This document shows positions 88 through 55,556 of a stretch of DNA of 64,000 nt, in pieces. The translations under genes were made by a program, and so were the position numbers. This DNA is from Candidatus Delongbacteria bacterium (lineage in GTDB: Bacteria > UBA4055), in NCBI GenBank assembly GCA_016938275.1, contig JAFGUZ010000165.1, forward strand, positions 15,459 through 79,458, in the 5' to 3' direction. Numbering within the stretch: position 1 is the first letter of the stretch; each line of letters opens with the position of its first letter. The notes beneath the pieces are model-generated. The model saw only the letters and a program-made list of their open reading frames with translations. It did not search any database and was not told where the DNA came from.

Positions 88-2520
88 TTGTCAGAAAATA
101 GTAGAATACGGATTGAAAAAAGATTAAAAATTTTAAGTTTAGCTGCTGATTTAGGTGTAAGTCAAACAGCAAAAATGTATGATATTGATCCAAAAACAAT
201 CAGAAATTGGAGAAGAAAGTTTGAAGATTCAGGCAGAAATGCTCTAGAAAATCAATCAAAAAAGCATATTGAACAAAAATACAAAATGCCAGAATCAGAA
301 TTCAATTTAATTAAAGAATGTTATCTAAATAATCCTAATCTTAGTGCAAGAGAAATTAAAGAAAATTTAAACCTTAAATATTCACTAAAAACAATATTGA
401 AAAAATTGAGTGAGATAAAATCTGATCCAAATGATTTAAAATACTCACTAGATGAGATAAGAATCCCACTACTCAATAATGATTTTTATTTAAGAATTAG
501 TGATTTGGAAAATAAAGGATTTAAAAATAAAATCTATAAATATTTGTTTATTTTAATAAATAGCTCAACAGGAGCAATATTTTGCTCTTTTGCATCAGAA
601 AAAACAGATTTAAATATTGCCTTATTTATCGACTACAGCGTATTTTGGCTCAAGAAAAATCAGTTCGAACCCAGTTTCCTAAATTTCCACCTAGATCCTT
701 CAATTTTGAAGACAAAAGGTTTTATCAAGAAGGTGGCAGAGAAAAATAAAATAGAGATAATGACTAGTAGATATAGTGAAGATATTTTTGATTTTGACAA
801 CCGAAAATATATTAAAATTTTCATAAACAATCTCAAATCAAAAGATATCAAAAACAATGACGATCTTCTTCTGTTTACACATTCACTTGTAGTGTCAAGT
901 AATACTCAGGTGTTTTCTGAAAGATTGGAAAAACATAATAGATCTGATATCTCATTTTTCGAAAAATTAGAGAATTTATCTTTTTCTTTTGTTCCAATTT
1001 ACATCGATAAACACTTCACTAGATTTAGTGCAATATTAAATAATACTCAACCTTGGGATGATTTTTTAACAGAATTCAATAATTTCACAGCAAAATCATC
1101 GACAATTTTCTATCAGACTTGTAATGATATTAGAAAAGTTGGTGATAATAAATCTGCATTGTTATTTTTTGGAGTAGCTGCAAAATGGCTACAGATTAGA
1201 AATCCAGAATTAAAGATATTAAGTCTTTTACAACAATGTATAATTTTATGGAATTTAGAACGTGATGAAGACGCTTGGAGACATCTTCAAAATGCCTACT
1301 CACAAGCAGTTAAATTAAAGCATATTCCTACTTTGATAAAATGCTATAATTTACTTTCTATGCATTTTTATAGAAAAAGTGATTTTGAAAGGGCATTTTT
1401 TTATAACAAAAAAGAGTTGGATCTAGCTAGAAAAATTAATGACACAAAGAATATCATGAGAACCACAATCAACATGGGTGTTCAATTACAAATAAAAGGT
1501 AGTTACAATACTGCGATTAAACTTTACAACAACCTTATTAATACATCGAATGATAATTACAATATTACCTTCAGTTACATCAATCTGTCTCTATTATATC
1601 TTAATATTGGAAAGCCTAGTCTTGCTTTAAAAAATTCATATTTAGTTCTTGAGTACAGTAATGATCATAATTATCACAATAATGATTATCATATCTATAA
1701 TTCAATCGGAAGGTCATATCTTGCACTGGATAGATTTCTCGAAGCTAAAATTAATTTTCAAAAAGCTGCCGAAATATCAATGGCATCAGGTTTATTCAGA
1801 GAATATTATGAATGTCAAAATTTTCTAGCTCATATTTCATGCGAAACGGGAAATTTCAAAAAGGCTTTAGAAATTCTACAAGAGATCCAAAATAATAAAA
1901 AGGAGCTAAATCTTGAATTTCTACTTGCTGAGCTAAATCTAATTAAATCTAAGATATTACTAAGAATAGGCAAAGATAAGAATTTCAAAGAATCAATAGA
2001 GGAAGCTAAAAATAAAGCAATAAATTTAAATGAGCTGGATACTCTTTTTGAGATAAAAATGTTGGAGGGATACTTTTATTTAACAAAAACAAAATTCAAT
2101 ATTGCTCATGAAATTTATAAAGAAGCAAAAGAGTTATGTCCAAAAAGATTTTCCGAAAAATTAGCTTCTGTCTATAAATATATAGCACTAGCTGATGCTC
2201 TAATTCATATCTCCAAGTCAGAAACTAGCCTTTCTACAATAATGGAAAAGATAGAAATCTTTTTTAATATGTATAATGTAAAAGATCGAAAGAGAACAAG
2301 TGCAGAATTTAACTTCAGAATTTGGTTTATTGTAAAGCTTCTCACTGAAAAAGGACTAATAACAGATATCAGTGAATCCTTATATAAGAAGTACCCTGCA
2401 GTTGATTTTTCATTGGATAAATTGAGGTTAAAAGCGATAAGGGGATATCAGAAATTATTTATGCAAACTCAAAAAATAATATACTCAGAAAGAATAGAAA
2501 TGTTAAAGTCATATAATTAA
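88..2520 (+). CDS. 810-aa protein: N-terminal transposase-type helix-turn-helix (IS630/IS3-like HTH) fused to a long TPR-like alpha-helical repeat region. No transposase catalytic domain.
   Basis: TTG start with AAGGGA RBS. The N-terminus LAADLGVSQTAKMYDIDPKTIRNWRRKFEDSG is a typical transposase HTH. Residues ~390-700 show TPR-like periodicity (YNLLSMHFYRKSDFERAFFYNKKELDLARK...). Confidence 0.6.
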   Translation: MSENSRIRIEKRLKILSLAADLGVSQTAKMYDIDPKTIRNWRRKFEDSGRNALENQSKKHIEQKYKMPESEFNLIKECYLNNPNLSAREIKENLNLKYSLKTILKKLSEIKSDPNDLKYSLDEIRIPLLNNDFYLRISDLENKGFKNKIYKYLFILINSSTGAIFCSFASEKTDLNIALFIDYSVFWLKKNQFEPSFLNFHLDPSILKTKGFIKKVAEKNKIEIMTSRYSEDIFDFDNRKYIKIFINNLKSKDIKNNDDLLLFTHSLVVSSNTQVFSERLEKHNRSDISFFEKLENLSFSFVPIYIDKHFTRFSAILNNTQPWDDFLTEFNNFTAKSSTIFYQTCNDIRKVGDNKSALLFFGVAAKWLQIRNPELKILSLLQQCIILWNLERDEDAWRHLQNAYSQAVKLKHIPTLIKCYNLLSMHFYRKSDFERAFFYNKKELDLARKINDTKNIMRTTINMGVQLQIKGSYNTAIKLYNNLINTSNDNYNITFSYINLSLLYLNIGKPSLALKNSYLVLEYSNDHNYHNNDYHIYNSIGRSYLALDRFLEAKINFQKAAEISMASGLFREYYECQNFLAHISCETGNFKKALEILQEIQNNKKELNLEFLLAELNLIKSKILLRIGKDKNFKESIEEAKNKAINLNELDTLFEIKMLEGYFYLTKTKFNIAHEIYKEAKELCPKRFSEKLASVYKYIALADALIHISKSETSLSTIMEKIEIFFNMYNVKDRKRTSAEFNFRIWFIVKLLTEKGLITDISESLYKKYPAVDFSLDKLRLKAIRGYQKLFMQTQKIIYSERIEMLKSYN

Positions 2521-2574
2521 AATAAATCTTACTGATTTTATGTTATACTTATAAACTGCCATTGAATTATATTA

Positions 2575-2601
2575 AAAAAGGTGCCTTAAAGACACCTTTT
2601 A
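2575..2601. terminator. bidirectional rho-independent terminator hairpin (AAAAAGGTG-ccttaaaga-CACCTTTTT)
   Basis: A 9-bp perfect stem flanked by an A-run and a T-run. It lies between the convergent genes 88-2520 (+) and 2603-2974 (-). Confidence 0.6.
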
Positions 2602-2602
2602 T

Positions 2603-2974
2603 TTATCTAGCATACTTTTTACATAAGGCAATAAATTTGTCAATATCAACAGGTTTCTGTAAAACAGTTCTAACATTTAGATCATTTAGATCAAAATTTC
2701 TACCTGAAGCTGCAGCTATAGAAGAACTAAGAATAATTGGAATATCAAAATTTCCCTCTTTTAAAGCTTCAGCAAACTCAAAACCAGAATCTGCACTTTC
2801 CATCATAACATCAAGAATGATAAGATTTGGTGAATCATTTTTAGCAATTTTCAAACCCTCTTCGCTTGAAAGTGCTGATTTTATCTCAAAACCTTCTTTT
2901 TCAAGAATAAGAGTATAGGATTCGATAAAATCTATATCATCATCAACCAAAAGAACCATCTTTTTATCGGACAT
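2603..2974 (-). CDS. stand-alone CheY-like response regulator receiver domain
   Basis: MVLLVDDDIDF...LIILDVMM...IPIILSS...QKP carries the receiver acidic pocket, phospho-Asp and Ser/Lys motifs. The start was moved to the second ATG (MSDKK), which has a GGAGG RBS. The ORF-track start at 2986 has no RBS. Confidence 0.75.
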   Translation of the reverse strand: MSDKKMVLLVDDDIDFIESYTLILEKEGFEIKSALSSEEGLKIAKNDSPNLIILDVMMESADSGFEFAEALKEGNFDIPIILSSSIAAASGRNFDLNDLNVRTVLQKPVDIDKFIALCKKYAR

Positions 2975-3016
2975 TTTTTCCTCCATTGTTTATAATCAGA
3001 CATCTATGTCAAAATT

Positions 3017-3045
3017 ATTTTATCAACTTACATAAGTATAGTCAA
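3017..3045 (-). promoter_or_regulatory. sigma70-like promoter (TTGACT, 17-nt spacer, TAAAAT) for the receiver gene
   Basis: Read on the minus strand it gives TTGACTatacttatgtaagttgaTAAAAT. It lies between the hydB-proximal hairpin and the RR start. Confidence 0.35.
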
Positions 3046-3065
3046 TATAATTTTTTAGAATTATT

Positions 3066-3084
3066 GCGGCAGGAAATCTGCCGC
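3066..3084 (-). terminator. stem-loop GCGGCAG-gaaat-CTGCCGC immediately after the hydB stop (weak terminator or mRNA-stabilising hairpin; no U-tract on the minus strand)
   Basis: 7-bp GC-rich perfect stem. On the minus strand the downstream sequence is A-rich rather than U-rich. Confidence 0.3.
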
Positions 3085-3090
3085 CTATTC

Positions 3091-4821
3091 CTATTTCATA
3101 AGATCTTCAAATTCTGATCTGAATTTTTTCACCATATTCTCAATAGGCACACAGAAAGCCTCACCTGTAGGACAGATAGTAACACCTTTAACATTTCTAC
3201 AAATTGTAAGGATATTCTCAAGATCCTCTGGTTTACCATTTCCATCAAGAATATTAGTTAAAATTCTCTTAATTGATTGAGATCCATGACGACAAGGTGC
3301 ACATCTTCCACAAGATTCATGAGCATAGAAATCTATCGTTCTTTTTGCAATTTTTGGTATAGATGTCTCTTTGTTGATAACCATTACCCCACCAGACCCA
3401 AGTGCAGTACCATGTTTAATACATGAATCATAATCCATCTTCAGATTTTGAAGCTCGTTAGCAGTAAGAATAGGTACAGATAAGCCACCAACTATAGCCG
3501 CTTTCAATTCCCCTTTTACACCACCTGCAGCTTCAATAAGCTCATCAAATGGAATACCCATTGGATATTCGTATACGCCAGGTTTGTTTACATGACCACT
3601 AATTCCAAAAATTTTAAATCCATTATTATTTGACGGTCCAAATGTTCTGTAAGCCTCAGCTCCATTTTCAACAATGTAAGGAACACTTGCCAAAGTTTCA
3701 ACATTGTTAACAATAGTAGGGCATCCATATAGACCTTCAACAGCAGGGAATGGAGGTTTTATTCTAGGCTCACCACGCTTACCTTCAATAGATTCGATCA
3801 AAGCAGTTTCTTCACCGCAAACGTAAGCACCAGCTCCCCTATGAACAATAATATCGAAATTATTAAGTTTTCCATCTCTTCTGGCTTCTTCAATAGCATT
3901 TTCTAAAATCTGTGCGATCCACTCAAATTCACCACGAATATAGATAAAACCAAGTTGCGATTTTAAAGCGTGAGCTGAAATCACCATACCTTCAATTAGA
4001 AGATGTGGATCGTATTCCATAATTTGTCTGTCTTTGAAAGTTCCAGGTTCACCTTCGTCAGCATTACAGATTAGGTATACTGGTTTTTCATTATTTTTTG
4101 GTAAGAATCCCCATTTAACACCAGTAGGAAAACCAGCTCCCCCCCTGCCTCTAAGCATGGATTTTTTTACTTCAGAAATAATATCAGCTGGATTCATTTC
4201 TAAAGCTTTTACTAGAGCTGAATAGCCACCATTTTTCTTGTAAGTATCAATAGATACAGAATTTTCTACACCACGATTTTTCAAAAGGATATTACATACT
4301 GTAGCCCAATTATATTCATCCTGTTTCGGAGGCATCACACCTTCTCTTAATGATTTTATCAGTGCAACTGTTTTTTCAGGAGTCATATTTTCATAATATG
4401 TGTCGTTAACTTGAATTACTGGACATGAACCACACGAACCTAAATCTTCAACAGCTTTCAATGTAAACATTTTATCGCTAGTCGTTTGACCAACTTCAAT
4501 TCCAAGTTCATCTTTCACAGTTTTTAAAATTTCACACGCACCCATAAGTGAGGCGGGGATGTTTGTATCAACTTGAATAAAATATTTACCAACTTCTTTA
4601 GTATTGTACATTGAATAATAAGTCAACACACCGTAAGCAGCGGATTCAGGAACTCCAAGAAGTTCTGCAACTTCTCTGGTAAGGTCTCTAGTGATGTAGT
4701 TATTATTATCTTTCTGAACCATCATAAGAGCAGGCATAATAGCAGACTCTTTCTTAGGATATCTTCCAGCTAGATCCAGAATTTTTGATTTTATATTATC
4801 AGAAATCATTATATCTCCCAT
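3091..4821 (-). CDS. NuoF-like NADH-binding flavoprotein (hydrogenase diaphorase subunit, HydB/HndC type) with an N-terminal NuoE/thioredoxin-like domain
   Basis: NADH/FMN motif GGAGFPTGVKWGF. C-terminal 4Fe-4S motif CGRCAPC...C. The N-terminal ~150 aa are NuoE-like but retain only CGSC (CxxC), with no Cx4C pair. Confidence 0.85.
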   Translation of the reverse strand: MGDIMISDNIKSKILDLAGRYPKKESAIMPALMMVQKDNNNYITRDLTREVAELLGVPESAAYGVLTYYSMYNTKEVGKYFIQVDTNIPASLMGACEILKTVKDELGIEVGQTTSDKMFTLKAVEDLGSCGSCPVIQVNDTYYENMTPEKTVALIKSLREGVMPPKQDEYNWATVCNILLKNRGVENSVSIDTYKKNGGYSALVKALEMNPADIISEVKKSMLRGRGGAGFPTGVKWGFLPKNNEKPVYLICNADEGEPGTFKDRQIMEYDPHLLIEGMVISAHALKSQLGFIYIRGEFEWIAQILENAIEEARRDGKLNNFDIIVHRGAGAYVCGEETALIESIEGKRGEPRIKPPFPAVEGLYGCPTIVNNVETLASVPYIVENGAEAYRTFGPSNNNGFKIFGISGHVNKPGVYEYPMGIPFDELIEAAGGVKGELKAAIVGGLSVPILTANELQNLKMDYDSCIKHGTALGSGGVMVINKETSIPKIAKRTIDFYAHESCGRCAPCRHGSQSIKRILTNILDGNGKPEDLENILTICRNVKGVTICPTGEAFCVPIENMVKKFRSEFEDLMK

Positions 4822-4845
4822 TTTTTAATTCTTTGAATTTGATAA

Positions 4846-6630
4846 TTAGTGTTTATGTGTAACCTCTTTTACAGCATTACCAAAAGCTTTTGATCTTTCA
4901 AAGTAATTTGTGTGAAGTAATTTATGAGCAAGTTCTGAATTTGGTTTTTCTAGATAGTCTTGATAAATTTTCTGAACCATTGGATTTTCATGAGAGAATC
5001 TTATAGAAAGAGCTTTATCTTCATTATAAAGACCTTCACCACGAACTTCTCTATCAACCATTCCACAACCGAAAGGCTGACCACCACCTCCAACACATCC
5101 ACCTGGACATGCCATTACTTCAATGAAATGGAATTCAGATTTACCAGTTTCAGCAATTTGAGCTCTAACTTTATCCATTAATTTTCTAGCATTTCCAAGA
5201 CCGTTTGCAACAGCTACTCTAACAGGGAAAGGAAGTCCAGGAGCATCAATAGTTGCTTCTTTAATACCTTCTAATCCTCTAACAACTTTGATATCTGGAT
5301 CAGGAAGATTATTGTTAGTTAAAAGGAAGTATGCAGATCTTACGGCTGCTTCCATAACACCACCTGTTGCACCAAAAATTGTAGCAGCACCAGTATAAGC
5401 ACCCATCAATCTGTCAGCTTCTTCTTCAGGTAAATTTTTATAGTCTAGACCAGCTTCTTTAACCATTCTAACAAACTCTCTAGTAGTAAGAACATAATCA
5501 ACATCCTGATATCCAGAATCATTCATTTCAGGTCTTCTAGCTTCAAACTTTTTAGCAGTACAAGGCATTAGAGATACAGAAACTATATCTTTAGGATCAA
5601 TATTATTTTCTTTAGCATAATATGTTTTTACCAAAGCACCAAACATTTGCTGTGGAGATTTACAAGTAGAGACATTTTTTGCAAGATCTGGGAAGAATGT
5701 CTCCATAAATTTAATCCATCCAGGAGAACAGGAAGTAACAAGTGGTAATGTGCCACCATTAACTACTCTAGAAATAAGCTCAGAACCCTCTTCCATAATT
5801 GTAAGATCGGCTGTAAAATTTGTATCAAACACTCTGTCAAAACCAAGTCTTCTTAATGCTGCATACATTTTACCAGGAGTAGCAAGACCTTGCTCCATGC
5901 CAAATTCTTCAGCTAAAGCAACTCTGATTGCAGGAGCTTCTTGAATGACAACATGTTTTTTAGGATCAAGTAAAGCTGTCCATACTTCATCAATTTCACT
6001 TTTTTCAGTTAAAGCACCAGTTGGACAATAAACTGTACACTGTCCACAATTGATACATGGACTATTAGCCATTCCTTCATCAAAAGCTGTTGTTGCATAT
6101 GTTTTATAGCCTCTTTCAGCTTTGGTAAGAGCATTTACAGTCTGAATGGACGAACATACTTCTATACATCTTCCACAATTTATACATTTATTAGGATCTC
6201 TAATTATCGATGGGCTGGAATCGTCAACAGGAAGTCTTTCCATGCTCACAGGAACTCTTCTCATCGTTACGCTAAGATTATTTGCTAGATCTTCAAGTTC
6301 ACATTTTCCATGAGCAAGACAAGTAGGACATTCAACATGATGATCAGCCAAAGTCATCTCTAGAATAAGCTTTCTTGTTTCTCTAATACGCAATGAATTT
6401 GTTGTAACATCCATACCCTCTCTAACTGGAGTTGTACAAGATCTTTTTGGGCTATTTTCACCTTCTATATCAACAACGCATATACCACAACTTCCAGATG
6501 GTTTTAAATCTGGGTGATAACAAAGACTCGGAATTTTTATTCCAACCTTTTTTGCTGCTTCTAAAATTGTAGTGTTTTCTGGTACTTTAACTTCAAGACC
6601 GTCAATTACCAGGTTTACCATTTTTTGCAT
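4846..6630 (-). CDS. hydA: [FeFe]-hydrogenase catalytic subunit (M3-type: 2Fe-2S ferredoxin, His-ligated 4Fe-4S, 2x 4Fe-4S, H-cluster domain) with an atypical L1 motif
   Basis: N-terminal 2Fe-2S cysteines; HHVECPTCLAHGKC; CINCGRCIEVC; CINCGQCTVYCP. H-cluster motifs are L2 MPCTAKKFE and L3 EVMACPGGCVGGGGQP. L1 reads TSCSPGW (Ser where the second Cys is expected). AAGGAG RBS. Confidence 0.85.
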   Translation of the reverse strand: MQKMVNLVIDGLEVKVPENTTILEAAKKVGIKIPSLCYHPDLKPSGSCGICVVDIEGENSPKRSCTTPVREGMDVTTNSLRIRETRKLILEMTLADHHVECPTCLAHGKCELEDLANNLSVTMRRVPVSMERLPVDDSSPSIIRDPNKCINCGRCIEVCSSIQTVNALTKAERGYKTYATTAFDEGMANSPCINCGQCTVYCPTGALTEKSEIDEVWTALLDPKKHVVIQEAPAIRVALAEEFGMEQGLATPGKMYAALRRLGFDRVFDTNFTADLTIMEEGSELISRVVNGGTLPLVTSCSPGWIKFMETFFPDLAKNVSTCKSPQQMFGALVKTYYAKENNIDPKDIVSVSLMPCTAKKFEARRPEMNDSGYQDVDYVLTTREFVRMVKEAGLDYKNLPEEEADRLMGAYTGAATIFGATGGVMEAAVRSAYFLLTNNNLPDPDIKVVRGLEGIKEATIDAPGLPFPVRVAVANGLGNARKLMDKVRAQIAETGKSEFHFIEVMACPGGCVGGGGQPFGCGMVDREVRGEGLYNEDKALSIRFSHENPMVQKIYQDYLEKPNSELAHKLLHTNYFERSKAFGNAVKEVTHKH

Positions 6631-7121
6631 TTAACTCTCCTTAATATTTGAACTATAATTACTTTTGCCTCTGGACGCAATACGACTTATTTGCAGAAAC
6701 CGTAATCACAACCAGTGCTAGCAATATTCAATAGTATATGATATTTGTCAATTATTTTTTTTACATTTTTTTTGTTACAAAATTCACAATCGACTTTAAC
6801 ACGCCCACATAATGTATATTATTTTATTTATACAACTACTTAATGGGAAATAATTTATTCCTACAATATTTGAAAAAACGAATAAATCTACGTAATTTCT
6901 TTACGTTGGCAACAATAATGTATTTGTTACTTAAATAACAACTTTATGATTATAGTAATCATTCTTTGATTTTCCCCGATACATAAAAGAGATATTTAGA
7001 TCTCACCGTATATAGTATTGCGTATACAATTAATTATATAATGCCCACATTCAGAGATATCAAATAAAAAAAAAAGTAATTTAAGAAGTGATCAAACTGT
7101 CTAACCTATTATAAGAAGGAG

Positions 7122-9413
7122 CTAAATCTCCTGTCTGTCTCTCTTTGTTGCTAACTGAATCTCATTTAAAAGAATCTTACCTTCCAGAGGCTTATGTAAA
7201 ATTTTAGCAACACCCAACTCTTCAGCCTTTTTCATATCAAAAGAGCTTGTAAATCCTGTTATTATTATTACAGGAATATTATCACCTGCAGCTTGTATTA
7301 TATCAAGACCTGTATAATTTGGCATACTCATATCGGAAATAATAATATCATAAGATCTTACATTTCTCTTTACCTCATCAATAGCTTTTTTGCTATCTGT
7401 AAAACAGGTCACCTGATGACCTACCATCTCCAATAGTTCTGAAACATTCTCAACTATTTTCTTTTCATCGTCAACCAAAAGAATTCTCTTAGGTTCAATT
7501 ACTCCACTTTCAAGACTTGAAAAGTCTGAAATAGGTTTTATTGCAGCCTCTTCAGCTATAGGAAGATATATCTTAAAAGTTGTCCCTTTATCCTCTTCTG
7601 AAACAACTTCAATATGTCCATCATAAGATTTTACTATTCCATGAACCATCGACAATCCAAGACCTGTTCCATCTTTACCTTTTGTTGTAAAATATGGATC
7701 AAAAATTCTTGTTAGATTTTCTTTTGCGATACCTTTTCCATTATCTTCAATGGACAGTAGAACATAATTGCTTTTTTTGAGGATTAAATGAAGGTGACTG
7801 TTGAGATTATTCCAATTAACATCAACTAATGATATTGAAAGCTCCCCCTGAATATCCTTCATTGCATAAATTGAATTTGTACAGAGATTCATTACAATCT
7901 GTTGAATTTCAGAAGGATCAATATAGGCAATACTATTACTATCGATATTCCGCCTGATTATTATATTTTTTGGCAATGTTGATTTTAACAGTTTTATAGT
8001 CTCTTTTACATAGATAGAAATCTGACAGGAATTCATATTATTTTCATTTTTATGACTGAAAGTAAGAATTCTTTTAACCAGTTTTTTCATGCGGTCTGCA
8101 GCTTCATAAATATCTTGAATTTTGTTTCTTACTTTGCCCTCACCTAAAGTTCTAAGCAAAATATATGAGCTACCGTATATTATAGTTAAAATATTGTTTA
8201 TATCATGGGCAATTCCACCGGCCAACGTTCCAATAGCTTCCATTTTTTGAGAATGCTTCAATTGTTCTTCCAGTAAAGATTCCTTTGTTACATCTTTTTT
8301 TACTGCAACATAGTTAGATATTTCCTTATCAACATTAAAAAGAGGATAAATAATTGCGTCTTCCTTATAAATCATACCATCTTTTTTCTTATTGAATATC
8401 GTTCCTTTCCAAAAACTTCCAGCAGAAATGGTACTCCAAATATCAGCGTAAAATTCATGTGAATGTCTTCCACTCTTAGTAAGATTCGACTTTCTTCCAA
8501 CTACTTCATCTCTTTTAAACCCTGTAACATCAAGATATCTCTGATTTACATATTCAATAAACCCATTCTTATCGCAAATCATAACTGAGTGGAGTGAATT
8601 TTCAACTACTGACGCAAGCTTAGATATCTCACTTTGATCGTTAATGTTCTTTGTTATATCAAAGGCTATTCCACCAATCAAAGGTTGGTTATTTATTCTA
8701 TTTATCAAAAACTTTTGTATCTTTAGCCTTTTAATTTCCCCATCAAAAACAAGCTTTTTATCAAATTCAACAAAACCTTTTTCCAATACAATCTTATCTT
8801 CATTTGTCAATTCTTCAGCAAAACTCTTTTCAAATATTTCATCAGTATGCTTTCCAGCATACTCACTTAGCTTAAACAACTCTTTCATATTATTATTAAC
8901 AAAGAGGTATCTTGAGTCAACAGTCTTGATAAAAACTGAAACAGATACATAATTCATAAACTGTGTAAAGATTCTTTCTAGCAGCTCACCATCTCCATAT
9001 ATATCTTTCTTTAAATCCCTGAATTGAATCTCCAAAGATTTATCTCGTTTATATTTTTCTATCGATTTATTAATTATTGAATCGATTTCTTGCTGAGAAT
9101 CGTTAATGTCAATTACATCAGAAACCCCATTTCTATAAGCTTTGATAATTGTTTTATTGGAACAATTATTGGAAAATCCTAAAACAGGGAACTCAAAAGA
9201 TTTTTCATGAAAAAAAGTTTCTTCTGTATTCAAACTATCATCAGTTAGAGACAATATTACCAAATCAGGTTTAAAATTATCAATTAAATCAAATCCAGTT
9301 TTGTGATCCAAAGCTCTAATTACATTATAGCCCAAATTATTAAGACGTTGAGCAAGCTTCTTTGTTGAATCAAGCGATGGATCAATTATCACAATTTTTT
9401 TAACTCTACACAT
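7122..9413 (-). CDS. hybrid sensor histidine kinase: N-terminal receiver-like domain, PAS domains, HisKA/HATPase_c, C-terminal receiver
   Basis: HisKA H-box AHDINNILTII. HATPase N/G boxes (DNGKGIAKENL, GTGLGLSMV). C-terminal RILLVDDEKK...IISDMSMP receiver. The N-terminus IVIIDPSLD...DLVILSL is receiver-like. Confidence 0.8.
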   Translation of the reverse strand: MCRVKKIVIIDPSLDSTKKLAQRLNNLGYNVIRALDHKTGFDLIDNFKPDLVILSLTDDSLNTEETFFHEKSFEFPVLGFSNNCSNKTIIKAYRNGVSDVIDINDSQQEIDSIINKSIEKYKRDKSLEIQFRDLKKDIYGDGELLERIFTQFMNYVSVSVFIKTVDSRYLFVNNNMKELFKLSEYAGKHTDEIFEKSFAEELTNEDKIVLEKGFVEFDKKLVFDGEIKRLKIQKFLINRINNQPLIGGIAFDITKNINDQSEISKLASVVENSLHSVMICDKNGFIEYVNQRYLDVTGFKRDEVVGRKSNLTKSGRHSHEFYADIWSTISAGSFWKGTIFNKKKDGMIYKEDAIIYPLFNVDKEISNYVAVKKDVTKESLLEEQLKHSQKMEAIGTLAGGIAHDINNILTIIYGSSYILLRTLGEGKVRNKIQDIYEAADRMKKLVKRILTFSHKNENNMNSCQISIYVKETIKLLKSTLPKNIIIRRNIDSNSIAYIDPSEIQQIVMNLCTNSIYAMKDIQGELSISLVDVNWNNLNSHLHLILKKSNYVLLSIEDNGKGIAKENLTRIFDPYFTTKGKDGTGLGLSMVHGIVKSYDGHIEVVSEEDKGTTFKIYLPIAEEAAIKPISDFSSLESGVIEPKRILLVDDEKKIVENVSELLEMVGHQVTCFTDSKKAIDEVKRNVRSYDIIISDMSMPNYTGLDIIQAAGDNIPVIIITGFTSSFDMKKAEELGVAKILHKPLEGKILLNEIQLATKRDRQEI

Positions 9414-9543
9414 ATAAGCAATTATCCAGTATATTCACCTTAAAATAAAAAATTAAAGTTAATAAAACAATCCAATTATTATTTTAATTTTTGAAATGTA
9501 ACTAAGAAAACCTTTTTGAATTGAATTTAAAGAATGTAATAAC

Positions 9544-9570
9544 TTGACTTCTTTGTATCTTAAATATAAT
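9544..9570 (+). promoter_or_regulatory. sigma70-like promoter (TTGACT, 15-nt spacer, TATAAT) upstream of the SGNH hydrolase gene
   Basis: Good -35 and perfect -10 hexamers, but the spacer is slightly short. It lies ~30 nt upstream of the AGGTG RBS and ATG at 9598. Confidence 0.3.
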
Positions 9571-9597
9571 TTTTGTTTCTAACAATTTAGGTGTTCA

Positions 9598-10644
9598 ATG
9601 GGAAAAAAATTGAAAATTGCTATATACGTATTATTATCTATAATTATCAATCTCATTTTTTGGAATTTTATAATAGAGAGGTTTATATATTTGAGTGAAG
9701 AAGCCCATCTAGATAATAAAATTGGCAGGAGAGGAAAAAGTCACAAGAAAATAGTTTTTGGTTTAGAAGGATTTTCAAGTATTAAACTGGATTCGCTAGG
9801 ATTTAACAATAATGACTATAAAATCGAAAAAGATGAAAATAAAAAAAGAATCCTCCTGCTCGGAGATTCATTTACTGAAGCATATCAAGTTCAAAGAGAA
9901 GATAATTACTGTTCAATATTAGGCAATCATCTAGAAGATAAATATGAAGTTATCAATCTTGGCATCAGTGGAGCAACCATGGCATATCACCTTTTTGCTT
10001 CAAAATACATTTCAGAATACTTACAGCCGGATTTAGTTTTTATTCAAGTAGACACTCTTCAAGATTTTTTACTTGATAACTTTTTACAATCAAATTGGTT
10101 GTATGTAGAAAAAAACAATTCATCATTTACAATTAAAAAAAATTATGACAGAAATAGTAAAAGTGTCAGAATAAAAAATAAGCTATATTCTTTTTCAGGA
10201 ATTACTGGTTATTTTGTAATTCGATTAAGAGAATTTGCAAATACTTTATGTAAAAAAGTTGACAATGAAAATCAAACTGTTCAATTGGATTATGATTTCC
10301 TGCAAGAATATATTGATTGGGAATTAAATGAGATCAAATCAAACTATACCAATTTAGTTGTACTTGATTTTTCAGGTTTAGCTTCGATTGGAAACAATCG
10401 TTTTATCGTACATGAGAGTGACAATAACTCTAAAAAACTGGATAGTCTTGTTATTAATAGTTTGTATAAAAATGATATAAAAATTCTTTCAGTAGATGAA
10501 GAGTTTAACTTATACCAAGAACAACATAAGATAGCATTGTTAGGCTTCAATAATAAGATAATCGGATATGGGCATTTGAATGAACAAGGCCATAAGTTAG
10601 TTGCAGACATTATGATGCAATATATAAATAATTTAAATTTTTAG
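9598..10644 (+). CDS. membrane-anchored SGNH/GDSL-family hydrolase (AlgJ/PatB-like O-acetyltransferase partner)
   Basis: N-terminal TM helix. GDSF block in LLLGDSFTEAY. C-terminal GHLNEQGH block. It sits directly upstream of an MBOAT gene. Confidence 0.6.
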   Translation: MGKKLKIAIYVLLSIIINLIFWNFIIERFIYLSEEAHLDNKIGRRGKSHKKIVFGLEGFSSIKLDSLGFNNNDYKIEKDENKKRILLLGDSFTEAYQVQREDNYCSILGNHLEDKYEVINLGISGATMAYHLFASKYISEYLQPDLVFIQVDTLQDFLLDNFLQSNWLYVEKNNSSFTIKKNYDRNSKSVRIKNKLYSFSGITGYFVIRLREFANTLCKKVDNENQTVQLDYDFLQEYIDWELNEIKSNYTNLVVLDFSGLASIGNNRFIVHESDNNSKKLDSLVINSLYKNDIKILSVDEEFNLYQEQHKIALLGFNNKIIGYGHLNEQGHKLVADIMMQYINNLNF

Positions 10645-10656
10645 TAAGGATAATTA

Positions 10657-12054
10657 ATGGTTTTTTCCAGTTTTACTTTTCTTTTATTTTTTTTTATCGT
10701 ATATCTACTTCTTCTAATATTCAAAAAAAGTCATAAAATCGAAAAAATTATATTATTATCTTCGAGCTACTTTTTTTACGGTTATTGGGATTATAGATTT
10801 TTATCTCTTATTTTTTTTTCAACCATTGTAGATTATTATATTGGTAGAAAAATCTTTCAAACAAAAAACATATTTTCTAAAAAGAAGTTACTTTTTACTA
10901 GTATGTTTGCCAATCTTGGTCTACTCTTTTTCTTTAAGTATTTTAATTTCTTTATCGATTCATTTAATTCATCATTTTCATTTTCAGGAATTGAATTTGA
11001 AACATTGAATATTATTCTTCCTGTAGGAATTTCATTCTACACTTTTCAGACAATGAGCTATACGTTAGACATTTATAGAGGAAAATTGAAGCCTGCTAAT
11101 AGCTTAATGGATTTTAGTATCTTTGTAGCTTTCTTTCCACAACTTGTTGCTGGTCCAATTGTTAGAGCAATTGATTTCATACCACAATTAGAAAAAAAAA
11201 TTGAGTTAAATAAAACAAATTTAAATTTAGGATTTCAAATTTTTTTGAATGGTTTCTTTAAAAAACTTTTTATTGCAGATACTCTATCGGTTTATGTCGA
11301 TCACGTTTTTGCAAACCCTTCAGTTTTCGATAGTCTAACTATTTGGTTTGGTGTTATTGCATACGCTGTGCAGATCTTTTGTGATTTCAGTGGATACTCA
11401 GATATGGCTATTGGAATTGCTAAAATATTTGGCTTTAACTTGCCAGAAAATTTTAGAGCACCATATTTAGCTAAAAACATCACTGAATTCTGGCATAGAT
11501 GGCATATATCTCTATCTACGTGGCTGAAAGATTATCTTTACATCTCTCTCGGTGGTAACAGGAAAGGAAAAATCAGGACTTATATAAACTTAATGTTGAC
11601 AATGGTCCTTGGTGGATTATGGCATGGAGCAAGTTGGAATTTTGTTATATGGGGAACGCTCCATGGTCTGGGATTAGTAGTGCATAAACTTTTATTGAGT
11701 AAACTGCTCGGTTTGAATAATCTTTTTTTTAGTGTGATATCATGGATATTTAATATGATTTTTATTTTGATTTGCTGGGTATTCTTCAGAGCTGAAAACA
11801 CTGATTTTGCTATGATAATGATAAGAAAAATGTTCACAATTTCTGAAGGAGCATCTTTTCTTTATACAAAATTTTTAATTTTTTTCCCTTTTATAATATT
11901 GACACATATATTTGCAAAGTATGGATATGATAGGAAATATTATACTGTAGATTTAACATCTCTTAGAGGGATTTTTGTTATAGTTACTATTATATTTATC
12001 TTTATTCTATTCAGTCCTCTTGATACCTCTCCTTTTATTTATTTTCAATTTTAA
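10657..12054 (+). CDS. MBOAT-family membrane-bound O-acyltransferase (AlgI/DltB/PatA-like)
   Basis: Polytopic protein with FPQLVAGPIVRA, WHRWHISLSTWLKDYLY and GGLWHGASWNF motifs including the conserved His. Confidence 0.85.
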   Translation: MVFSSFTFLLFFFIVYLLLLIFKKSHKIEKIILLSSSYFFYGYWDYRFLSLIFFSTIVDYYIGRKIFQTKNIFSKKKLLFTSMFANLGLLFFFKYFNFFIDSFNSSFSFSGIEFETLNIILPVGISFYTFQTMSYTLDIYRGKLKPANSLMDFSIFVAFFPQLVAGPIVRAIDFIPQLEKKIELNKTNLNLGFQIFLNGFFKKLFIADTLSVYVDHVFANPSVFDSLTIWFGVIAYAVQIFCDFSGYSDMAIGIAKIFGFNLPENFRAPYLAKNITEFWHRWHISLSTWLKDYLYISLGGNRKGKIRTYINLMLTMVLGGLWHGASWNFVIWGTLHGLGLVVHKLLLSKLLGLNNLFFSVISWIFNMIFILICWVFFRAENTDFAMIMIRKMFTISEGASFLYTKFLIFFPFIILTHIFAKYGYDRKYYTVDLTSLRGIFVIVTIIFIFILFSPLDTSPFIYFQF

Positions 12055-12138
12055 GTAAATGGAATAACTTATTACGTGAAAGAATTAGTTTTGTATAATT
12101 ACTGCTTATAATAAAAAGTTCAAAATAGTGATAAAAAA

Positions 12139-12159
12139 AAGGGTGGAATATCCACCCTT
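12139..12159 (-). terminator. rho-independent terminator (AAGGGTGGA-ata-TCCACCCTT followed by U9 on the minus strand)
   Basis: 9-bp perfect stem immediately after the stop of the 12184-13809 gene, with a long T-run on the minus strand. Confidence 0.7.
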
Positions 12160-12183
12160 CAAAGTAATAGAATCGTAATTTTA

Positions 12184-13809
12184 CTAATCCATAAATGGAT
12201 ATTTATAACATGTAGGAGTAACAAATGTTTCCTTAATTGTTCTTGGGGAAACCCATCTCATCAGATTTAGATGCGAACCTGCTTTGTCATTTGTTCCTGA
12301 AGCTCTTGCACCACCAAATGGCTGCTGACCAACAACTGCACCAGTTGGTTTATCATTTATGTAGAAGTTTCCTGCTGCATTTTCTAATTTGTTAATCGCA
12401 AATCTTGCAGCATATCTATCTTTTGCAAATATAGAACCTGTCAAAGCATAAATTGAAGTAGTATCACAAAGTTCTAATGTTTCTTCATATTTTTCATCTT
12501 CATAAACATAAATTGTAAGTACCGGACCAAAAAGCTCTGTTTCCATAGTCACATATTTTGGATCTTTTGCCAAGATAACTGTAGGCTCGATGAAATAACC
12601 AACACTATCATCACAGTTTCCACCAAAGATAACTTCAGCATTTTCATCATTTTTAGCATTATCAATATAGCCTTTAAGATCACTGTAAGAATTTTTATCA
12701 ATTACGGCAGAAACAAAATTTTTGAAATCTCTTACGCAGCCCATTTTGACATCACTTAGCATTTTACCCATAGTTTCTTTAATTTCAGGCCATAAAGAAT
12801 TTGGAATGTAAGCTCTAGAACAAGCTGAGCACTTTTGACCTTGATACTCAAAAGCACCCCTTACAAGAGCTGTAGCAACTTCTATAGGATCAGCAGATTT
12901 GTGAGTAAAAATAAAATCTTTTCCACCTGTCTCACCTACAATTCTTGGATAAGATTTATATTTAGCGATATTTTCACCAACAGTTTTCCACATTTGATGA
13001 AACACACCTGTAGATCCTGTAAAATGAATACCACCAAGATCTTTATGAGCCATAACAATTCTTCCAACCTGTGATCCTCTACCTGGAATGAAATTGATGA
13101 CACCATCTGGGAATCCAGCTTCTTTGAAAATTTTCATTAAATAATAACCAGATAGAACAGAAGTTGAAGCAGGTTTCCAAACTACAGTATTACCCATTAG
13201 AGCAGCACTACTTGGAAGATTTCCTGCTATCGCTGTAAAATTAAATGGTGTAACAGCAAATACGAAACCTTCAAGAGGTCTGTACTCTAATCTATTGTAA
13301 ACACCTTCGGAAGATTCAGGTTGTTGTTTATAAATATCTTCCATGTATTTAACATTAAATCTAAGGAAATCAATTATTTCACATGCTGAATCAATTTCTG
13401 CCTGATAAGCGGTTTTACCTTGATTTAACATTGTAGCAGCATTCATCAAATATCTGTATTTTTTAGAAATCAATTCAGCTGCTTTGAGAGCAATACTAGC
13501 TCTATCTTCCATTGGTAGAGCTGCCCACTCTTTTTTGGCTTGCATTGAAGCTTCAATTGCCATATTTATCTCTTTTTCACCTGCCTGATGATAAGTTGCT
13601 AAAACATGACCGTGTTCGGAAGGCATCACTGCAGTATCAGTATTACCAGTATAAATTTCTTTTCCTCCAATGATTACTGGAATCTCAATAGTTTGGTTGT
13701 ATTGTCTCTCCAGCTCTTTTTCAAGAAGCTCTCTCTCTTTAGTTCCCGGAGCATAAGAATATATTGGTTCATTTACCGGTTTAGGAAATGTAAAAATTGC
13801 AGTACTCAT
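12184..13809 (-). CDS. L-glutamate gamma-semialdehyde (delta-1-pyrroline-5-carboxylate) dehydrogenase, ALDH superfamily
   Basis: 541 aa. Catalytic Cys in EYQGQKCSACSR. The ETGGKDF glutamate motif and overall P5CDH (RocA/PruA)-like sequence. Confidence 0.8.
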   Translation of the reverse strand: MSTAIFTFPKPVNEPIYSYAPGTKERELLEKELERQYNQTIEIPVIIGGKEIYTGNTDTAVMPSEHGHVLATYHQAGEKEINMAIEASMQAKKEWAALPMEDRASIALKAAELISKKYRYLMNAATMLNQGKTAYQAEIDSACEIIDFLRFNVKYMEDIYKQQPESSEGVYNRLEYRPLEGFVFAVTPFNFTAIAGNLPSSAALMGNTVVWKPASTSVLSGYYLMKIFKEAGFPDGVINFIPGRGSQVGRIVMAHKDLGGIHFTGSTGVFHQMWKTVGENIAKYKSYPRIVGETGGKDFIFTHKSADPIEVATALVRGAFEYQGQKCSACSRAYIPNSLWPEIKETMGKMLSDVKMGCVRDFKNFVSAVIDKNSYSDLKGYIDNAKNDENAEVIFGGNCDDSVGYFIEPTVILAKDPKYVTMETELFGPVLTIYVYEDEKYEETLELCDTTSIYALTGSIFAKDRYAARFAINKLENAAGNFYINDKPTGAVVGQQPFGGARASGTNDKAGSHLNLMRWVSPRTIKETFVTPTCYKYPFMD

Positions 13810-32052: not shown

Positions 32053-34296
32053 TCAAATTTTAAAATAACTAACAATTTCTTTTAGCTTTTCGGCTTGAGA
32101 TGACAGTTCTTTAGCTGCATCAGCTGTTTCTTCTGAGCTAGCAGAATTAGTTTGAGTTATTTTTGAAACCTGAACAAGTCCTGTATTAGCTTGTTCAATT
32201 GCTCTGGCTTGCTCTTGAGATGAAACTGCAATTTCATTTACTAAATCAACTGCTTTGGTTATACTTTTTTCAATCTCTTTTAATGATTGGACTGATTTTT
32301 TTGTTATTGATGAACCTGTTTCTACTCTTTTAACAGAATCTTCGATCAATTCTGTGGTTTCTTTTGCGGCTTCTGCCGATCTTTGAGCAAGGTTTCTTAC
32401 TTCATCTGCTACAACTGCAAATCCTTTACCATGAATTCCAGCCCTTGCAGCCTCAACTGCTGCATTCAAAGCTAAAAGATTGGTTTGAAAAGCAATATCA
32501 TCAATTACTTTAATAATTTTTTTTATCTCTCCAGAACTAATTGCAATACCATGAACAGCCTTTTCCAGATCATTCATATTTTGATTTCCTTGTAAAGCTA
32601 ATTTTTTTGCATCTGATGAAATATTTGCTGCAAGATTTGCGTTCTCAGCATTTAATCTAGTTTGAGAACCAATTTCAAGCATAGTTGAAGTCAATTCCTC
32701 AATTGAGCTTGACTGCTCTGTAGAGCCAAGTGATAGAGAACTGGAAGCCTCAGATAATTGAGTAGACCCATGATCAATATCCTCTGCTGCAAAAGTAATT
32801 TCTTCGATGGTCAAATATAGTTTTTTGATTGTGTCTTCCAATGAGACAGATATTTTATTCATCATTTCATAATAGATTTTCATATCTTCGTTAAATGAAT
32901 CAGGTTGATATTGTATAGTTAAATCACCTTCAGACAATTTTTTTAAAAAGTATGATATTTGATCAACTTCTTTTACAAGGTATTCAGTGATCTGCTTACT
33001 TTTTTCTTGCTCAGCCAAAGCAATTTTTTTGGCATCTTCTGCAATTTTAAGCACTGAATTATCTGTAGATTCATCTTTAATCAGATTAAATGAACCACAT
33101 ACATTGTTTTCCAAATCAATAATAGGATAGGTTGCAATCGAATAAACAATCCTATTCCCTTTTTTCTCGATATTAAATGTGTCTTTTTTAGTAGTATTTC
33201 TTTCAACAGTTTCAATAAAGAGATCCCTTTTTAAATTGAGACTTGTTTGCTCCATTATTGAATCTACGTTCCCAAAAGTTTGTTCAAACAGATCATTCCT
33301 GTATAATATTTTTCCATCTTTATCATTGATAAATATAAGAACTGGCATTTTATCAAAATAAATTGTGTATGTTTTAATAATTTGATTGATGCCTTGTACG
33401 ATACTTATGTTCAAACCATGCCTTGATTTCTCAGATGTATCAATATCAACAGAACTTTTTAAGCTTCCTCGAACAATATTAGTTTTAATTTTCATTGTGT
33501 TTTCAGTAATAAGAGCTAAGTTTTCTTTGATTAAATTTAGATTGTCTGATAATTCTCCTAATTCATCGTTACTTACCTTTGAAAGGCTTATGTCATACTT
33601 ACCAGAAGCAATCTGTTTAGCAACATAACTAATTTCTTTTATAGGGTTTATGAAGTATTTATAAGAAAAAGAAACCATTGTTAAAATAACAATTAAGAAG
33701 ATTGTAAAAATTACAGTAATTCTAAAAAAAAGATCACTGTGCAGATCTTTTTCAAAATTATTTAGAAGAAGATCTAAATCATCAGAGTATATACCTGTAG
33801 CAAGGATCATATCAGATTTTGGTATTTTTTTAAACCATACATGTTTTTTTACAGGTTCATCTTTTCCACTCTTATTCCAATAATAGTCGATATAACCTTC
33901 GTCTTGTAATTTCGACATATCAACTAATTCTTTAAAGAATTTCTTACCTTTTACATCTTCATAATCAGATAAGTCTTTGTTTAGAAGGGATTTTACATAT
34001 GGATGATAGAGGCAATAATATTTTGAATTCATAACATAAAAATAGCCTTCAGGATCATATTTCATAAAATCTAGAGATTTAAAAAATTTTTCTTGGGAAC
34101 GTGTCGCAATGTAATCACCAATAGTCACATCTACGAGTGATTTCAATTGATTTAATCGTTCTTTTGTTAGTAATTCTTTTTGATCATTCAATTTAGAGCT
34201 ATAAGTTGAAAAATCAAATATTAATATGCCTCCTGTTATAGAGACTGCAGTTATCAATAAAACCAACAAGATTTTTCTATAAATGTCCAATTTCAT
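32053..34296 (-). CDS. methyl-accepting chemotaxis protein with a periplasmic double-Cache-like sensor, HAMP, PAS-like segment and MCP signalling domain
   Basis: Highly conserved MCP core IAFQTNLLALNAAVEAARAGIHGKGFAVVADEVRNLAQRSA. Two TM helices flank a ~180-aa periplasmic domain. The start was set at MKLDIYRK (GGAGAA RBS), not the ORF-track start. Confidence 0.8.
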   Translation of the reverse strand: MKLDIYRKILLVLLITAVSITGGILIFDFSTYSSKLNDQKELLTKERLNQLKSLVDVTIGDYIATRSQEKFFKSLDFMKYDPEGYFYVMNSKYYCLYHPYVKSLLNKDLSDYEDVKGKKFFKELVDMSKLQDEGYIDYYWNKSGKDEPVKKHVWFKKIPKSDMILATGIYSDDLDLLLNNFEKDLHSDLFFRITVIFTIFLIVILTMVSFSYKYFINPIKEISYVAKQIASGKYDISLSKVSNDELGELSDNLNLIKENLALITENTMKIKTNIVRGSLKSSVDIDTSEKSRHGLNISIVQGINQIIKTYTIYFDKMPVLIFINDKDGKILYRNDLFEQTFGNVDSIMEQTSLNLKRDLFIETVERNTTKKDTFNIEKKGNRIVYSIATYPIIDLENNVCGSFNLIKDESTDNSVLKIAEDAKKIALAEQEKSKQITEYLVKEVDQISYFLKKLSEGDLTIQYQPDSFNEDMKIYYEMMNKISVSLEDTIKKLYLTIEEITFAAEDIDHGSTQLSEASSSLSLGSTEQSSSIEELTSTMLEIGSQTRLNAENANLAANISSDAKKLALQGNQNMNDLEKAVHGIAISSGEIKKIIKVIDDIAFQTNLLALNAAVEAARAGIHGKGFAVVADEVRNLAQRSAEAAKETTELIEDSVKRVETGSSITKKSVQSLKEIEKSITKAVDLVNEIAVSSQEQARAIEQANTGLVQVSKITQTNSASSEETADAAKELSSQAEKLKEIVSYFKI

Positions 34297-34454
34297 GAGT
34301 TCTCCAAAAATAGTATTATGTAATATAAGATAATGCTTTATTTGTGTGATAAACAATAATGTTGTAGAAATCTTTTAAATTCATGAAAACTATCATTTGG
34401 TATTTCATTATTTTTTTTATATGTTCATGTTCGCTATTAACAAAGAGGATTAGA

Positions 34455-55300: not shown

Positions 55301-55556
55301 TGTTTTCTAAAATATAATCGCTTTTACCATAATGATTCTCAAAGATAGATCTAATCTCTTCATGCACTGTCTCATACAATCTTCTAGCTGACTGATTATG
55401 TTTAAACTTTATAAGAAAAAGATCTGTCACGTACACAGAACCAACAGCTAAAATCAAAATTGCAGAAAAACTGATCATCAATCTAAGAAACAATGACCTA
55501 CTTAGATCAGACTTATTGTTATCACTCATATTATTACTCATTTTGATATATATCAA
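52302..55556 (-). CDS. large membrane sensor histidine kinase (two TM helices, periplasmic-type sensor, multiple PAS domains, HisKA/HATPase_c, ~250-aa C-terminal extension)
   Basis: H-box VSHEIRTPLNAVLGY. N/G boxes (NAIKFTDHG, GGTGLGLSITKRL). PAS repeats between residues ~350-650. Confidence 0.8.
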   Translation of the reverse strand: MIYIKMSNNMSDNNKSDLSRSLFLRLMISFSAILILAVGSVYVTDLFLIKFKHNQSARRLYETVHEEIRSIFENHYGKSDYILENSIKQILIEKKLSLIAIFDSNGNKIFSIFEKPEDEIINKDSLVFKNESLESLVSFHKGSFISFRSPIYLNKGKFILLVSISETQISMLKNSIWSGLIIFILAITLALLLVYIILVRFFMPIKEILMSISDFFPDSFKVDSEDFTSIKKNMDSLIKSVTENKTEFERVNHILKGIKNNISVGLILVDEKNYIEDKICETVNSYWLNFDSDLIHFTKIFDYFITSNENNFEIEIGQKYFQVAVSQLEEFISKSYIFIIGDISELKYKEFKLIENESKLKALMNAVPDIIFVMDKDGNYKDVITNHNELLISDPNNLINKNLSEVLPDGIALKYKKMITNSLNSEKVKSYEYSLEINGELKWFEGRFTPVVLSEKNEERLCLVLVIDITKRKVAEDKLTELNLDLENQIDLRTKQLAQSEKNIKEIIDYAANLILRFDSNGKLIYINPIGVELLNLTIVNTSYTSFEKLFEASNGLEKFGDRLDGLFKDRNSQTSFEAQIKTRSGERKWILWNVRIISSEDSKVELLFIGTDITQNKDLENRLVKAKNEAEKSKAEAEKASLTKSEFIATVSHEIRTPLNAVLGYTNILMESDIDEKYKNYLFNIHKGSKDLLCTLNNILDLSKIDAGKVNIIEDSVNITNLIEDVKTIFYAIAKEKGLLLQSYVSPNTPQSIISDITILRQILVNLVGNAIKFTDHGSVIIKVSANRVRFRIYNIFISVVDTGVGITDEFKDQIFEPFSQGESNLSRKYGGTGLGLSITKRLVNLLGGMIEVKSQVNQGSEFNVSLFNMRKITVDNENIDKSIDQDRKLKGAVFFESPTMNELISYKFSNYNVRLEFHIDEMAFEEFIDSTNVSFMIINFDYIQNSFRDGIRIIRLFKHIKEVKIIAISDLKNIDESHNELFDLIVNRDVFEEKIIEIVQTLKLTKKNNLEKKLNLNIKQLNLLIKAEKSKNISDYRAFSESLGSDDDLVLKDYSIKLEKAIEDFELSVLNDLLMIIKESVL

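Follow-up and report, generated by a model that had tools for sequence, protein, structure and literature searches.

In HydABC of A. woodii, an [FeFe] hydrogenase that bifurcates electrons, Ser301 replaces the Cys ligand (Cys299 in T. kivui) of the [4Fe-4S] part of the H-cluster, and this Ser301 enzyme is active, with an unaffected H-cluster signature in Fourier-transform infrared spectra (Katsyv et al. 2023, PMC10021017). Among the sequences of putative hydrogenases, serine has been noted at this ligand position of sequence motif L1 in about 20% (Kertess et al. 2017, PMC5855289), and the L1 motif TSCSPGW is known from hydrogenases of Melainabacteria (Di Rienzi et al. 2013, PMC3787301). In contrast, engineered C115S, C115D and C115A variants of C. 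reinhardtii HydA1 were poorly occupied by the [4Fe-4S] cluster, did not take up the [2Fe] site and had no detectable activity (PMC5855289; in the numbering of that study C115 is the L1 ligand, Cys114 the proton relay and C170 the L2 ligand). With respect to electron donors, the HydAB enzyme of S. aciditrophicus has been shown experimentally to depend on reduced nicotinamide adenine dinucleotide (NADH) and to be independent of ferredoxin (PMC7311640). Here we describe a hydA gene with the TSCSPGW motif, located on a 64-kb stretch of DNA (64,000 nucleotides, hereafter the window) from Candidatus Delongbacteria. This gene very probably encodes the alpha subunit of a two-subunit, NADH-dependent, non-bifurcating HydAB [FeFe] hydrogenase with a Ser-type H-cluster. 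This kind of locus is known, and the present one is an ordinary example, with a Ser-type A6 HydA that belongs to a fused non-bifurcating HydAB system.

The hydA gene occupies positions 4846..6630 of the minus strand and encodes a 594-amino acid (aa) catalytic alpha subunit of M3 architecture; the NCBI record of the product is 591 aa long, its start corresponding to Met4 of the 594-aa open reading frame (ORF). Translation of this ORF, which contains GTLPLVTSCSPGWIKF, placed motif L1 (T299-S-C-S-P-G-W305) exactly at 5716..5736 (minus strand), with Ser302 encoded by TCT (reverse complement of 5725..5727), as the initial annotation had it. Also as annotated, the other two H-cluster motifs were intact, namely L2 (MPCTAKKFE, aa 355-363, including the ligand Cys357 and Lys360; 5542..5568, minus strand) and L3 (EVMACPGGCVGGGGQP, aa 504-519, including the ligand Cys508 and the bridging ligand Cys512; 5074..5121, minus strand). 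In gapless phmmer alignments, Ser302 matched Ser301 in HydA1 of A. woodii (7q4v_A) and Cys299 in HydA1 of T. kivui (8a6t_A), and a constant offset of +2 to the numbering of the C. pasteurianum hydrogenase CpI equated Ser302 with CpI Cys300 and the retained Cys301 with the proton relay, CpI Cys299. The Ser therefore falls inside L1 rather than outside it, and the residue assignments made from the sequence, in which the proton-transfer Cys is kept and the [4Fe-4S]H ligand Cys is replaced, were right.

The Ser at this position is shared throughout the related lineages. TSCSP was present in 119 of the 120 nearest database homologues of the window HydA (63-76% identity), which span Cloacimonadota, Hydrothermota, Spirochaetota, Aminicenantes and other groups, and a scan limited to one genome per species recovered TSCSPGW in all 117 hydA ORFs from 80 loci distributed over many phyla. 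All six Ser codons were represented among these 117 genes (AGC 60, AGT 19, TCT 15, TCA 14, TCG 6 and TCC 3), and the use of both Ser codon families shows that selection for Ser is long-standing. When a sequence library was clustered at 50% identity, the seven clusters closest to the window HydA with a readable L1 were all of the Ser type (six TSCSP and one SSCSP), and a Ser-type L1 was carried by 23 of the 115 (20%) representatives nearest the query in which L1 was readable. This share equals the frequency given in PMC5855289, so that describing TSCCPxW as near-universal, as had been done initially, was an overstatement, and the Ser ligand is not a novelty, having been published for A. woodii HydABC (PMC10021017) and at a similar frequency overall. 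The Cys-to-Ser change is instead the normal mark of a large natural clade whose [FeFe] hydrogenases are active, and it has been documented before. The sole TSCCP sequence among the 120 homologues, P0009 (595 aa, 72% identical to the window HydA), reads TSCCPGWVN in place of TSCSPGWIK and is apparently a natural Ser-to-Cys reversion inside the Ser-type clade, indicating that both the Ser and the Cys states are viable in the HydA scaffold.

These data also bear on whether the Ser could be a single-base sequencing or assembly error in which TGT was read as TCT, one of two explanations left open by the initial annotation. TCT is one base away from TGT and the source is a metagenome-assembled genome (MAG). 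Moreover, a search for an independent assembly spanning the Ser302 codon found none: the only full-length hydA copy on record is from the same assembly (GCA_016931755.1, contig JAFGEE010000340.1, Candidatus Delongbacteria; 591-aa product), the 594-aa product had no match in a database look-up, and two independent Logan assemblies both end within hydA and fall short of L1. Nevertheless, the clade as a whole has Ser as its consensus residue, in homologues and related loci alike and with codons that include AGC and AGT, and an error would have needed to recreate that consensus exactly. An error at this codon is thus vanishingly improbable, and we rejected it on the lineage and codon evidence; the other explanation, a genuine variant with Ser at the [4Fe-4S]H ligand position, is upheld by the conservation in both data sets.

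Apart from this ligand, HydA has the features of a catalytic group A enzyme. Pfam identified Fe_hyd_lg_C (2e-96), Fe_hyd_SSU, Fer2_4 and NADH-G_4Fe-4S_3 domains, corresponding to an M3 layout of an N-terminal [2Fe-2S] cluster, a His-ligated [4Fe-4S] cluster, two further [4Fe-4S] clusters, the H-domain and a small-subunit-like C-terminus; no PAS or other signalling domain was found by Pfam in HydA. The protein scored 837 bits against the NCBIfam model NF040763 ('NADH-dependent [FeFe] hydrogenase, group A6'; curated cutoff 765), covering profile positions 1-571 of 571, and 522 bits against TIGR02512 ('group A'; cutoff 406). The group A H-cluster ligands Cys357, Cys508 and Cys512 are present, and the L1 position is taken by Ser302, a documented alternative ligand. 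The proton pathway of CpI (E279, E282, R286, C299 and S319) is matched by E281, E284, R288, C301 and S321 of the window protein, and CpI M353, C355, K358, C499 and C503 by M355, C357, K360, C508 and C512; most of these proton-pathway and pocket residues were invariant in the homologue alignment. An AlphaFold2 model built with 30 homologues (predicted local distance difference test score 91.3, predicted template modelling score 0.90) predicts a CpI-like M3 fold, with Foldseek template modelling (TM) scores of 0.92 to T. kivui HydA (8a6t_A), 0.91 to A. woodii HydA (7q4w_A) and 0.89 to CpI. Because the proton-transfer and pocket residues are intact and a PAS domain is absent, HydA is predicted to be catalytic rather than sensory.

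The partner of HydA is encoded by hydB (3091..4821, minus strand), which lies 25 bases downstream of hydA and specifies a 576-aa NADH/flavin mononucleotide (FMN) subunit that, as judged from Pfam and sequence motifs, fuses a NuoE-like part (aa ~18-158) to a NuoF-like part (aa ~177-576). HydB is 100% identical to MBN2835797.1 of Ca. Delongbacteria, contains 2Fe-2S_thioredx, Complex1_51K, SLBB and NADH_4Fe-4S domains, and ends after the NuoF [4Fe-4S] domain. Its similarity to NuoF of complex I (E about 1e-115) exceeds that to the HydB chains of bifurcating enzymes (about 1e-101). Likewise, its NuoE-like module (aa 1-176; 4294-4821, minus strand) matched mitochondrial or alphaproteobacterial complex I 24-kDa subunits at ~2e-35 compared with 1e-17 to 1e-25 for bifurcating HydC, which fits the clustering of non-bifurcating beta subunits with respiratory NuoEF.

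The sequence characteristics that set non-bifurcating NADH-dependent beta subunits apart have been laid out by Losey et al. 2020 (PMC7311640). Such subunits lack the extra Fe-S domains of bifurcating HydB (a C-terminal 2x[4Fe-4S] domain and an extra N-terminal [2Fe-2S] domain), and the window HydB has neither these domains nor a CxxCxxCxxxCP motif. At positions 232 and 234 of TmHydB, Thr/Ser and Lys/Ser/Ala denote non-bifurcating and Ala/Glu and Met bifurcating enzymes (PMC7311640); mapped to TmHydB by motif correspondence, the window HydB reads NADEGEPG-T-F-K-DR (NADEGEPGTFKDR), whereas bifurcating-type neighbours in related loci read PG-A-F-M-DR. At TmHydB position 367, near the FMN site, Tyr rather than Phe is found in the window HydB (GAGAYVCGE, aligned with GAGAYICGE of T. 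thermophilus Nqo1), whereas the bifurcating-type neighbours have GAGAFVCGE. Finally, the SLBB region reads AIVGGLSVPIL in place of the GGPSG motif of bifurcating enzymes, and GGPSG was present in none of 121 fused homologues. The non-bifurcating beta signature as a whole was common to all 120 fused homologues.

This signature separates the locus from an electron-bifurcating or confurcating hydrogenase that would use NADH together with reduced ferredoxin to form H2, like HydABC of A. woodii or T. maritima, in which HydA is also of the M3 type. The best solved-structure matches of the window HydA are indeed HydA subunits of bifurcating HydABC complexes, and although ~64 of the 117 TSCSP hydA genes in related loci go with a non-bifurcating beta signature, ~39 adjoin bifurcating-type beta subunits, the A6 model scoring both kinds. 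Nevertheless, none of the hallmarks of electron-bifurcating HydABC (a ferredoxin-like HydB C-terminus, GGPSG, the Ala/Met/Phe residues and a separate four-Cys HydC) was found: the window HydB lacks the C-terminal 2x[4Fe-4S] ferredoxin domain and has Thr/Lys and Tyr at the positions of Ala/Met and Phe, and in HydABC bifurcation decreases when the C-terminus of HydB is deleted (PMC10021017). In addition, the canonical HydC-type [2Fe-2S] ligands, which are central to bifurcation in published models, are replaced in the window HydB, and no second beta subunit is encoded within the 64-kb window. Bifurcation is accordingly an unlikely mode for this enzyme.

Both types of beta subunit occur side by side in many Syntrophorhabdus-type, other deltaproteobacterial or Firmicutes loci, which carry two tandem hydrogenase clusters with TSCSP in both HydAs. 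In these loci (about 6001-13100 each; L012, L014-L024, L026, L027, L029-L031, L034-L041, L043, L044, L046, L048-L052, L055 and others), a non-bifurcating-type hydC-hydB-hydA cluster is followed by a bifurcating-type hydC, a hydB for a ~1017-aa protein with ~400 aa extra, and a second hydA.

The NuoE-like part of the fused HydB has a remodelled [2Fe-2S] ligand region (aa 85-133; 4423..4569, minus strand), identified from alignments to HydC, fused homologues and NDUFV2. In place of the four cysteines of the canonical site (Cys-x4-Cys...Cys-x3-Cys), the window HydB has Asp85, Ala90, Asp126 and Cys130, plus an extra Cys133, and so represents the 2-Asp/2-Cys form of the site; alignment to solved NDUFV2 chains confirmed the ligand positions. 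Unfused HydC proteins in related loci kept all four cysteines in 115 of 115 ORFs. Among 121 fused proteins, in contrast, the first position was always Asp and the second always Ala or Gly, the third was Cys (98) or Asp (22), and the fourth and the new Cys were each present in 119. This strict conservation argues that the remodelled site is still under selection and has not decayed. Losey et al. counted a [2Fe-2S] cluster in the fused beta subunit from domain analysis (PMC7311640); no description of a remodelled NuoE site was found in the searchable literature, and the site in fused beta subunits appears to be undescribed. It is conceivable, though rather doubtful, that the fused HydB site is a functional metal site with mixed oxygen and sulfur ligation, whose altered potential is part of non-bifurcation, and that the Ser ligand of HydA tunes the potential or catalytic bias of the H-cluster; such tuning in NAD(H)-linked enzymes would be consistent with failure of the same substitution in the algal enzyme.

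The hydAB pair is flanked on the same strand by two-component genes, which had been taken in the initial annotation to make a regulatory or sensory role plausible. Upstream of hydA, beyond a 491-bp AT-rich spacer, lies a gene for a 763-aa hybrid sensor histidine kinase (7122..9413, minus strand) in which Pfam identified PAS, HisKA, HATPase_c and C-terminal receiver domains, and 105 bp downstream of hydB is a receiver-only response-regulator gene (2603..2986, minus strand; Pfam Response_reg 3e-17). The latter occupies the place where the three closest relatives, whose beta subunits are 70-74% identical, have hydG-hydE-hydF (L083, 8829-12578; L085, 8764-12472; L086, 8868-12974) in the order hydA-hydB-hydG-hydE-hydF, and this position of hydGEF directly downstream ties the hydAB pair to H-cluster maturation. 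Two-component neighbours are absent from L083 and L086, whereas L085 has a PAS kinase and response regulators upstream, and among the 80 more distant loci no receiver gene occurs within about 6 kb. The two-component genes beside hydAB are specific to this genome and not conserved in relatives.

Sensory hydrogenases of the HydS type (groups C and D) deviate in the L1 motif region of the H-domain. They are also said, following work by Chongdar and colleagues in 2018, to have a C-terminal PAS domain and to lack the proton-relay Cys; compared with HydS so described, the window HydA has no PAS domain and keeps Cys301. A HydS-like enzyme that informs the adjacent two-component system of H2 status rather than turning over H2 would agree with the hybrid PAS kinase and receiver genes on either side of hydAB and with the similar surroundings in L085. 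However, HydA is devoid of signalling domains, its proton-relay Cys, whole proton pathway and pocket are intact, its partner is a NuoEF-type NADH/FMN module, and its Ser is shared with demonstrably catalytic enzymes; moreover, two of the three close relatives lack two-component neighbours, all three have hydGEF adjoining hydAB, and no distant locus has a receiver gene nearby. A sensory function is thus extremely unlikely, and the neighbouring genes do not signify a regulatory role for the enzyme, although they may regulate hydAB expression in this genome without making HydA a sensor. Of the overall interpretation offered at the outset, the genuine Ser-ligand variant therefore stands, and its rarity, the possible error and the sensory role do not.

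The replacement of hydGEF by a receiver gene could also mean that hydAB is a non-functional or unmatured second paralogue, in decay or being repurposed after loss of the adjoining hydGEF, and at its ligand positions the window HydB carries one substitution (Asp126) beyond those of most of the family. Yet both hydA and hydB are full-length ORFs with catalytic, FMN and cluster motifs all intact, and Asp126 recurs in 22 of 121 family members, indicating a tolerated state. L087, considered as a possible second hydAB-hydGEF copy of the genome, derives from the same Sequence Read Archive run, although the MAG record that contains its protein is a different one. We regard a decaying paralogue as very unlikely and favor a functional HydAB.

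A promoter and terminator scan of 2400-9700 was uninformative at 31% GC, yielding 49 promoter-like sites compared with 34 expected; one of these was TTGACA-17-AATATT ~90 bp upstream of hydA. A small ORF (~176-190 aa) with resemblance only to the HATPase_c core of a histidine kinase is found at a fixed place in the hyd clusters of 45 of the 80 loci (e.g., L020, 2987-3517; L005, 1340-1891), and its architecture is unrelated to that of the 763-aa hybrid kinase. Convergent to the receiver gene and next to it, positions 88-2520 (plus strand) encode a protein of 810 aa that has a helix-turn-helix at its N-terminus and contains MalT-like TPR repeats. The window also encodes a 1084-aa PAS histidine kinase (52302-55556) and a Cache/HAMP/PAS chemoreceptor (32053-34356), indicating that signalling genes are generally abundant here and not specific to hydAB.

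Several points weigh against assigning hydAB to a functional, non-bifurcating Ser-type enzyme. The main gap in the argument is that none of hydE, hydF and hydG was found in the 64-kb window; maturase genes are, however, often unlinked from hydA in bacterial genomes, which also argues against a decaying paralogue. Ser is not universally tolerated, since engineered C115S inactivates C. reinhardtii HydA1, though the enzymes of this clade have it naturally and function with it. When 23 Ser-type and 92 Cys-type representatives were compared by mutual information, the scan yielded no clear residue that compensates for Ser in place of Cys, the top scores coming from gaps in truncated sequences; there were weak local tendencies for Gly304 (21 of the 23 Ser types, compared with Ala in 48 and Gly in 37 Cys types) and for Ile rather than Phe at position 298 in the Ser types. 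The A6 HydA model does not discriminate coupling mode: when it was applied to HydAs of L010, L020, L067, L068 and L072, those with bifurcating-type beta subunits scored from 858 or 865 up to 943 bits, as high as or higher than non-bifurcating ones, so coupling mode must be read from the beta subunit and the name of NF040763 is not to be taken as 'ferredoxin-independent'. The beta-subunit characteristics of Losey et al. are themselves correlative and rest on few characterised enzymes, and the cluster site of the NuoE-like module is altered.

Taken together, we infer that the window enzyme is probably matured, active and non-bifurcating. By analogy with A. woodii HydABC, Ser ligation would be compatible with normal activity, and by analogy with S. 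aciditrophicus HydAB, coupling would be to NADH only. The [4Fe-4S] subcluster would be held by Ser302 (through O-gamma), Cys357, Cys508 and the bridging Cys512, with Cys301 remaining the proton relay to the [2Fe] site and protons presumably entering via E284, S321, E281 and Cys301. Homology suggests that NADH would reduce FMN in the NuoF-like half of HydB, from which electrons would pass through the HydB [4Fe-4S] cluster to the [2Fe-2S] and accessory [4Fe-4S] clusters of HydA and on to the H-cluster, where they would combine with protons to form H2. The reaction would be reversible, and NADH oxidation would be feasible only at low H2 partial pressure, as in characterised syntrophic enzymes.

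The TSCSPGW motif is characteristic of a large clade of [FeFe] hydrogenases, M3-type and NAD(H)-linked, that makes up about 20% of related sequence clusters and includes the NCBIfam A6 family, and genome scans should not treat it as a sign of an error, a pseudo-enzyme or a sensor. From the locus, Candidatus Delongbacteria are predicted to dispose of reducing equivalents directly from NADH to H2, a trait that typically goes with syntrophic lifestyles or fermentation at low H2. Functional study of the natural Ser ligand has been limited, although the same engineered change inactivates the algal enzyme, and its functional meaning and the remodelled cluster site of HydB together offer a modest lead.

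The locus can be compared with several known systems. A. woodii HydA1 (PDB 7Q4V/7Q4W/8A5E; PMC10021017), whose structure is the best match of the window HydA, shares its M3 architecture, its fold (TM 0.91, 49% identity) and an identical L1 motif, its Ser301 corresponding to window Ser302, but that enzyme is bifurcating, with a separate HydC and a separate HydB that carries a C-terminal ferredoxin domain and GGPSG, whereas the window encodes a fused NuoE-NuoF subunit with the non-bifurcating signature. S. aciditrophicus HydAB (SYN_01369/01370; PMC7311640) likewise consists of two genes, for an M3 HydA and a NuoE/NuoF-fused beta subunit of about 575-590 aa, and its HydB, compared by its published description, has the same diagnostic residues as the window HydB, although the phylum differs. 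Hyd1ABC of Syntrophomonas wolfei and, in related loci, the unfused hydC-hydB-hydA clusters share the non-bifurcating beta signature and a TSCSP HydA with the window; however, they have separate genes for a NuoE-like HydC and a NuoF-like HydB, usually in the order C-B-A rather than the A-B of the window, and the HydC proteins of the unfused clusters keep the four canonical [2Fe-2S] cysteines that the window HydB does not. CpI of C. pasteurianum (PDB 1FEH, 4XDC and others) has the same domains and fold (TM 0.89, ~41% identity) and conserved proton-pathway and pocket residues, but it is a monomer that depends on ferredoxin, and Cys300 (TSCCPGW) stands at the place of Ser302 in the window HydA. 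Finally, C115S of C. reinhardtii HydA1 (PMC5855289) places Ser at the same L1 position, but there the change from Cys is engineered and the enzyme inactive, whereas in the window clade the Ser is native.

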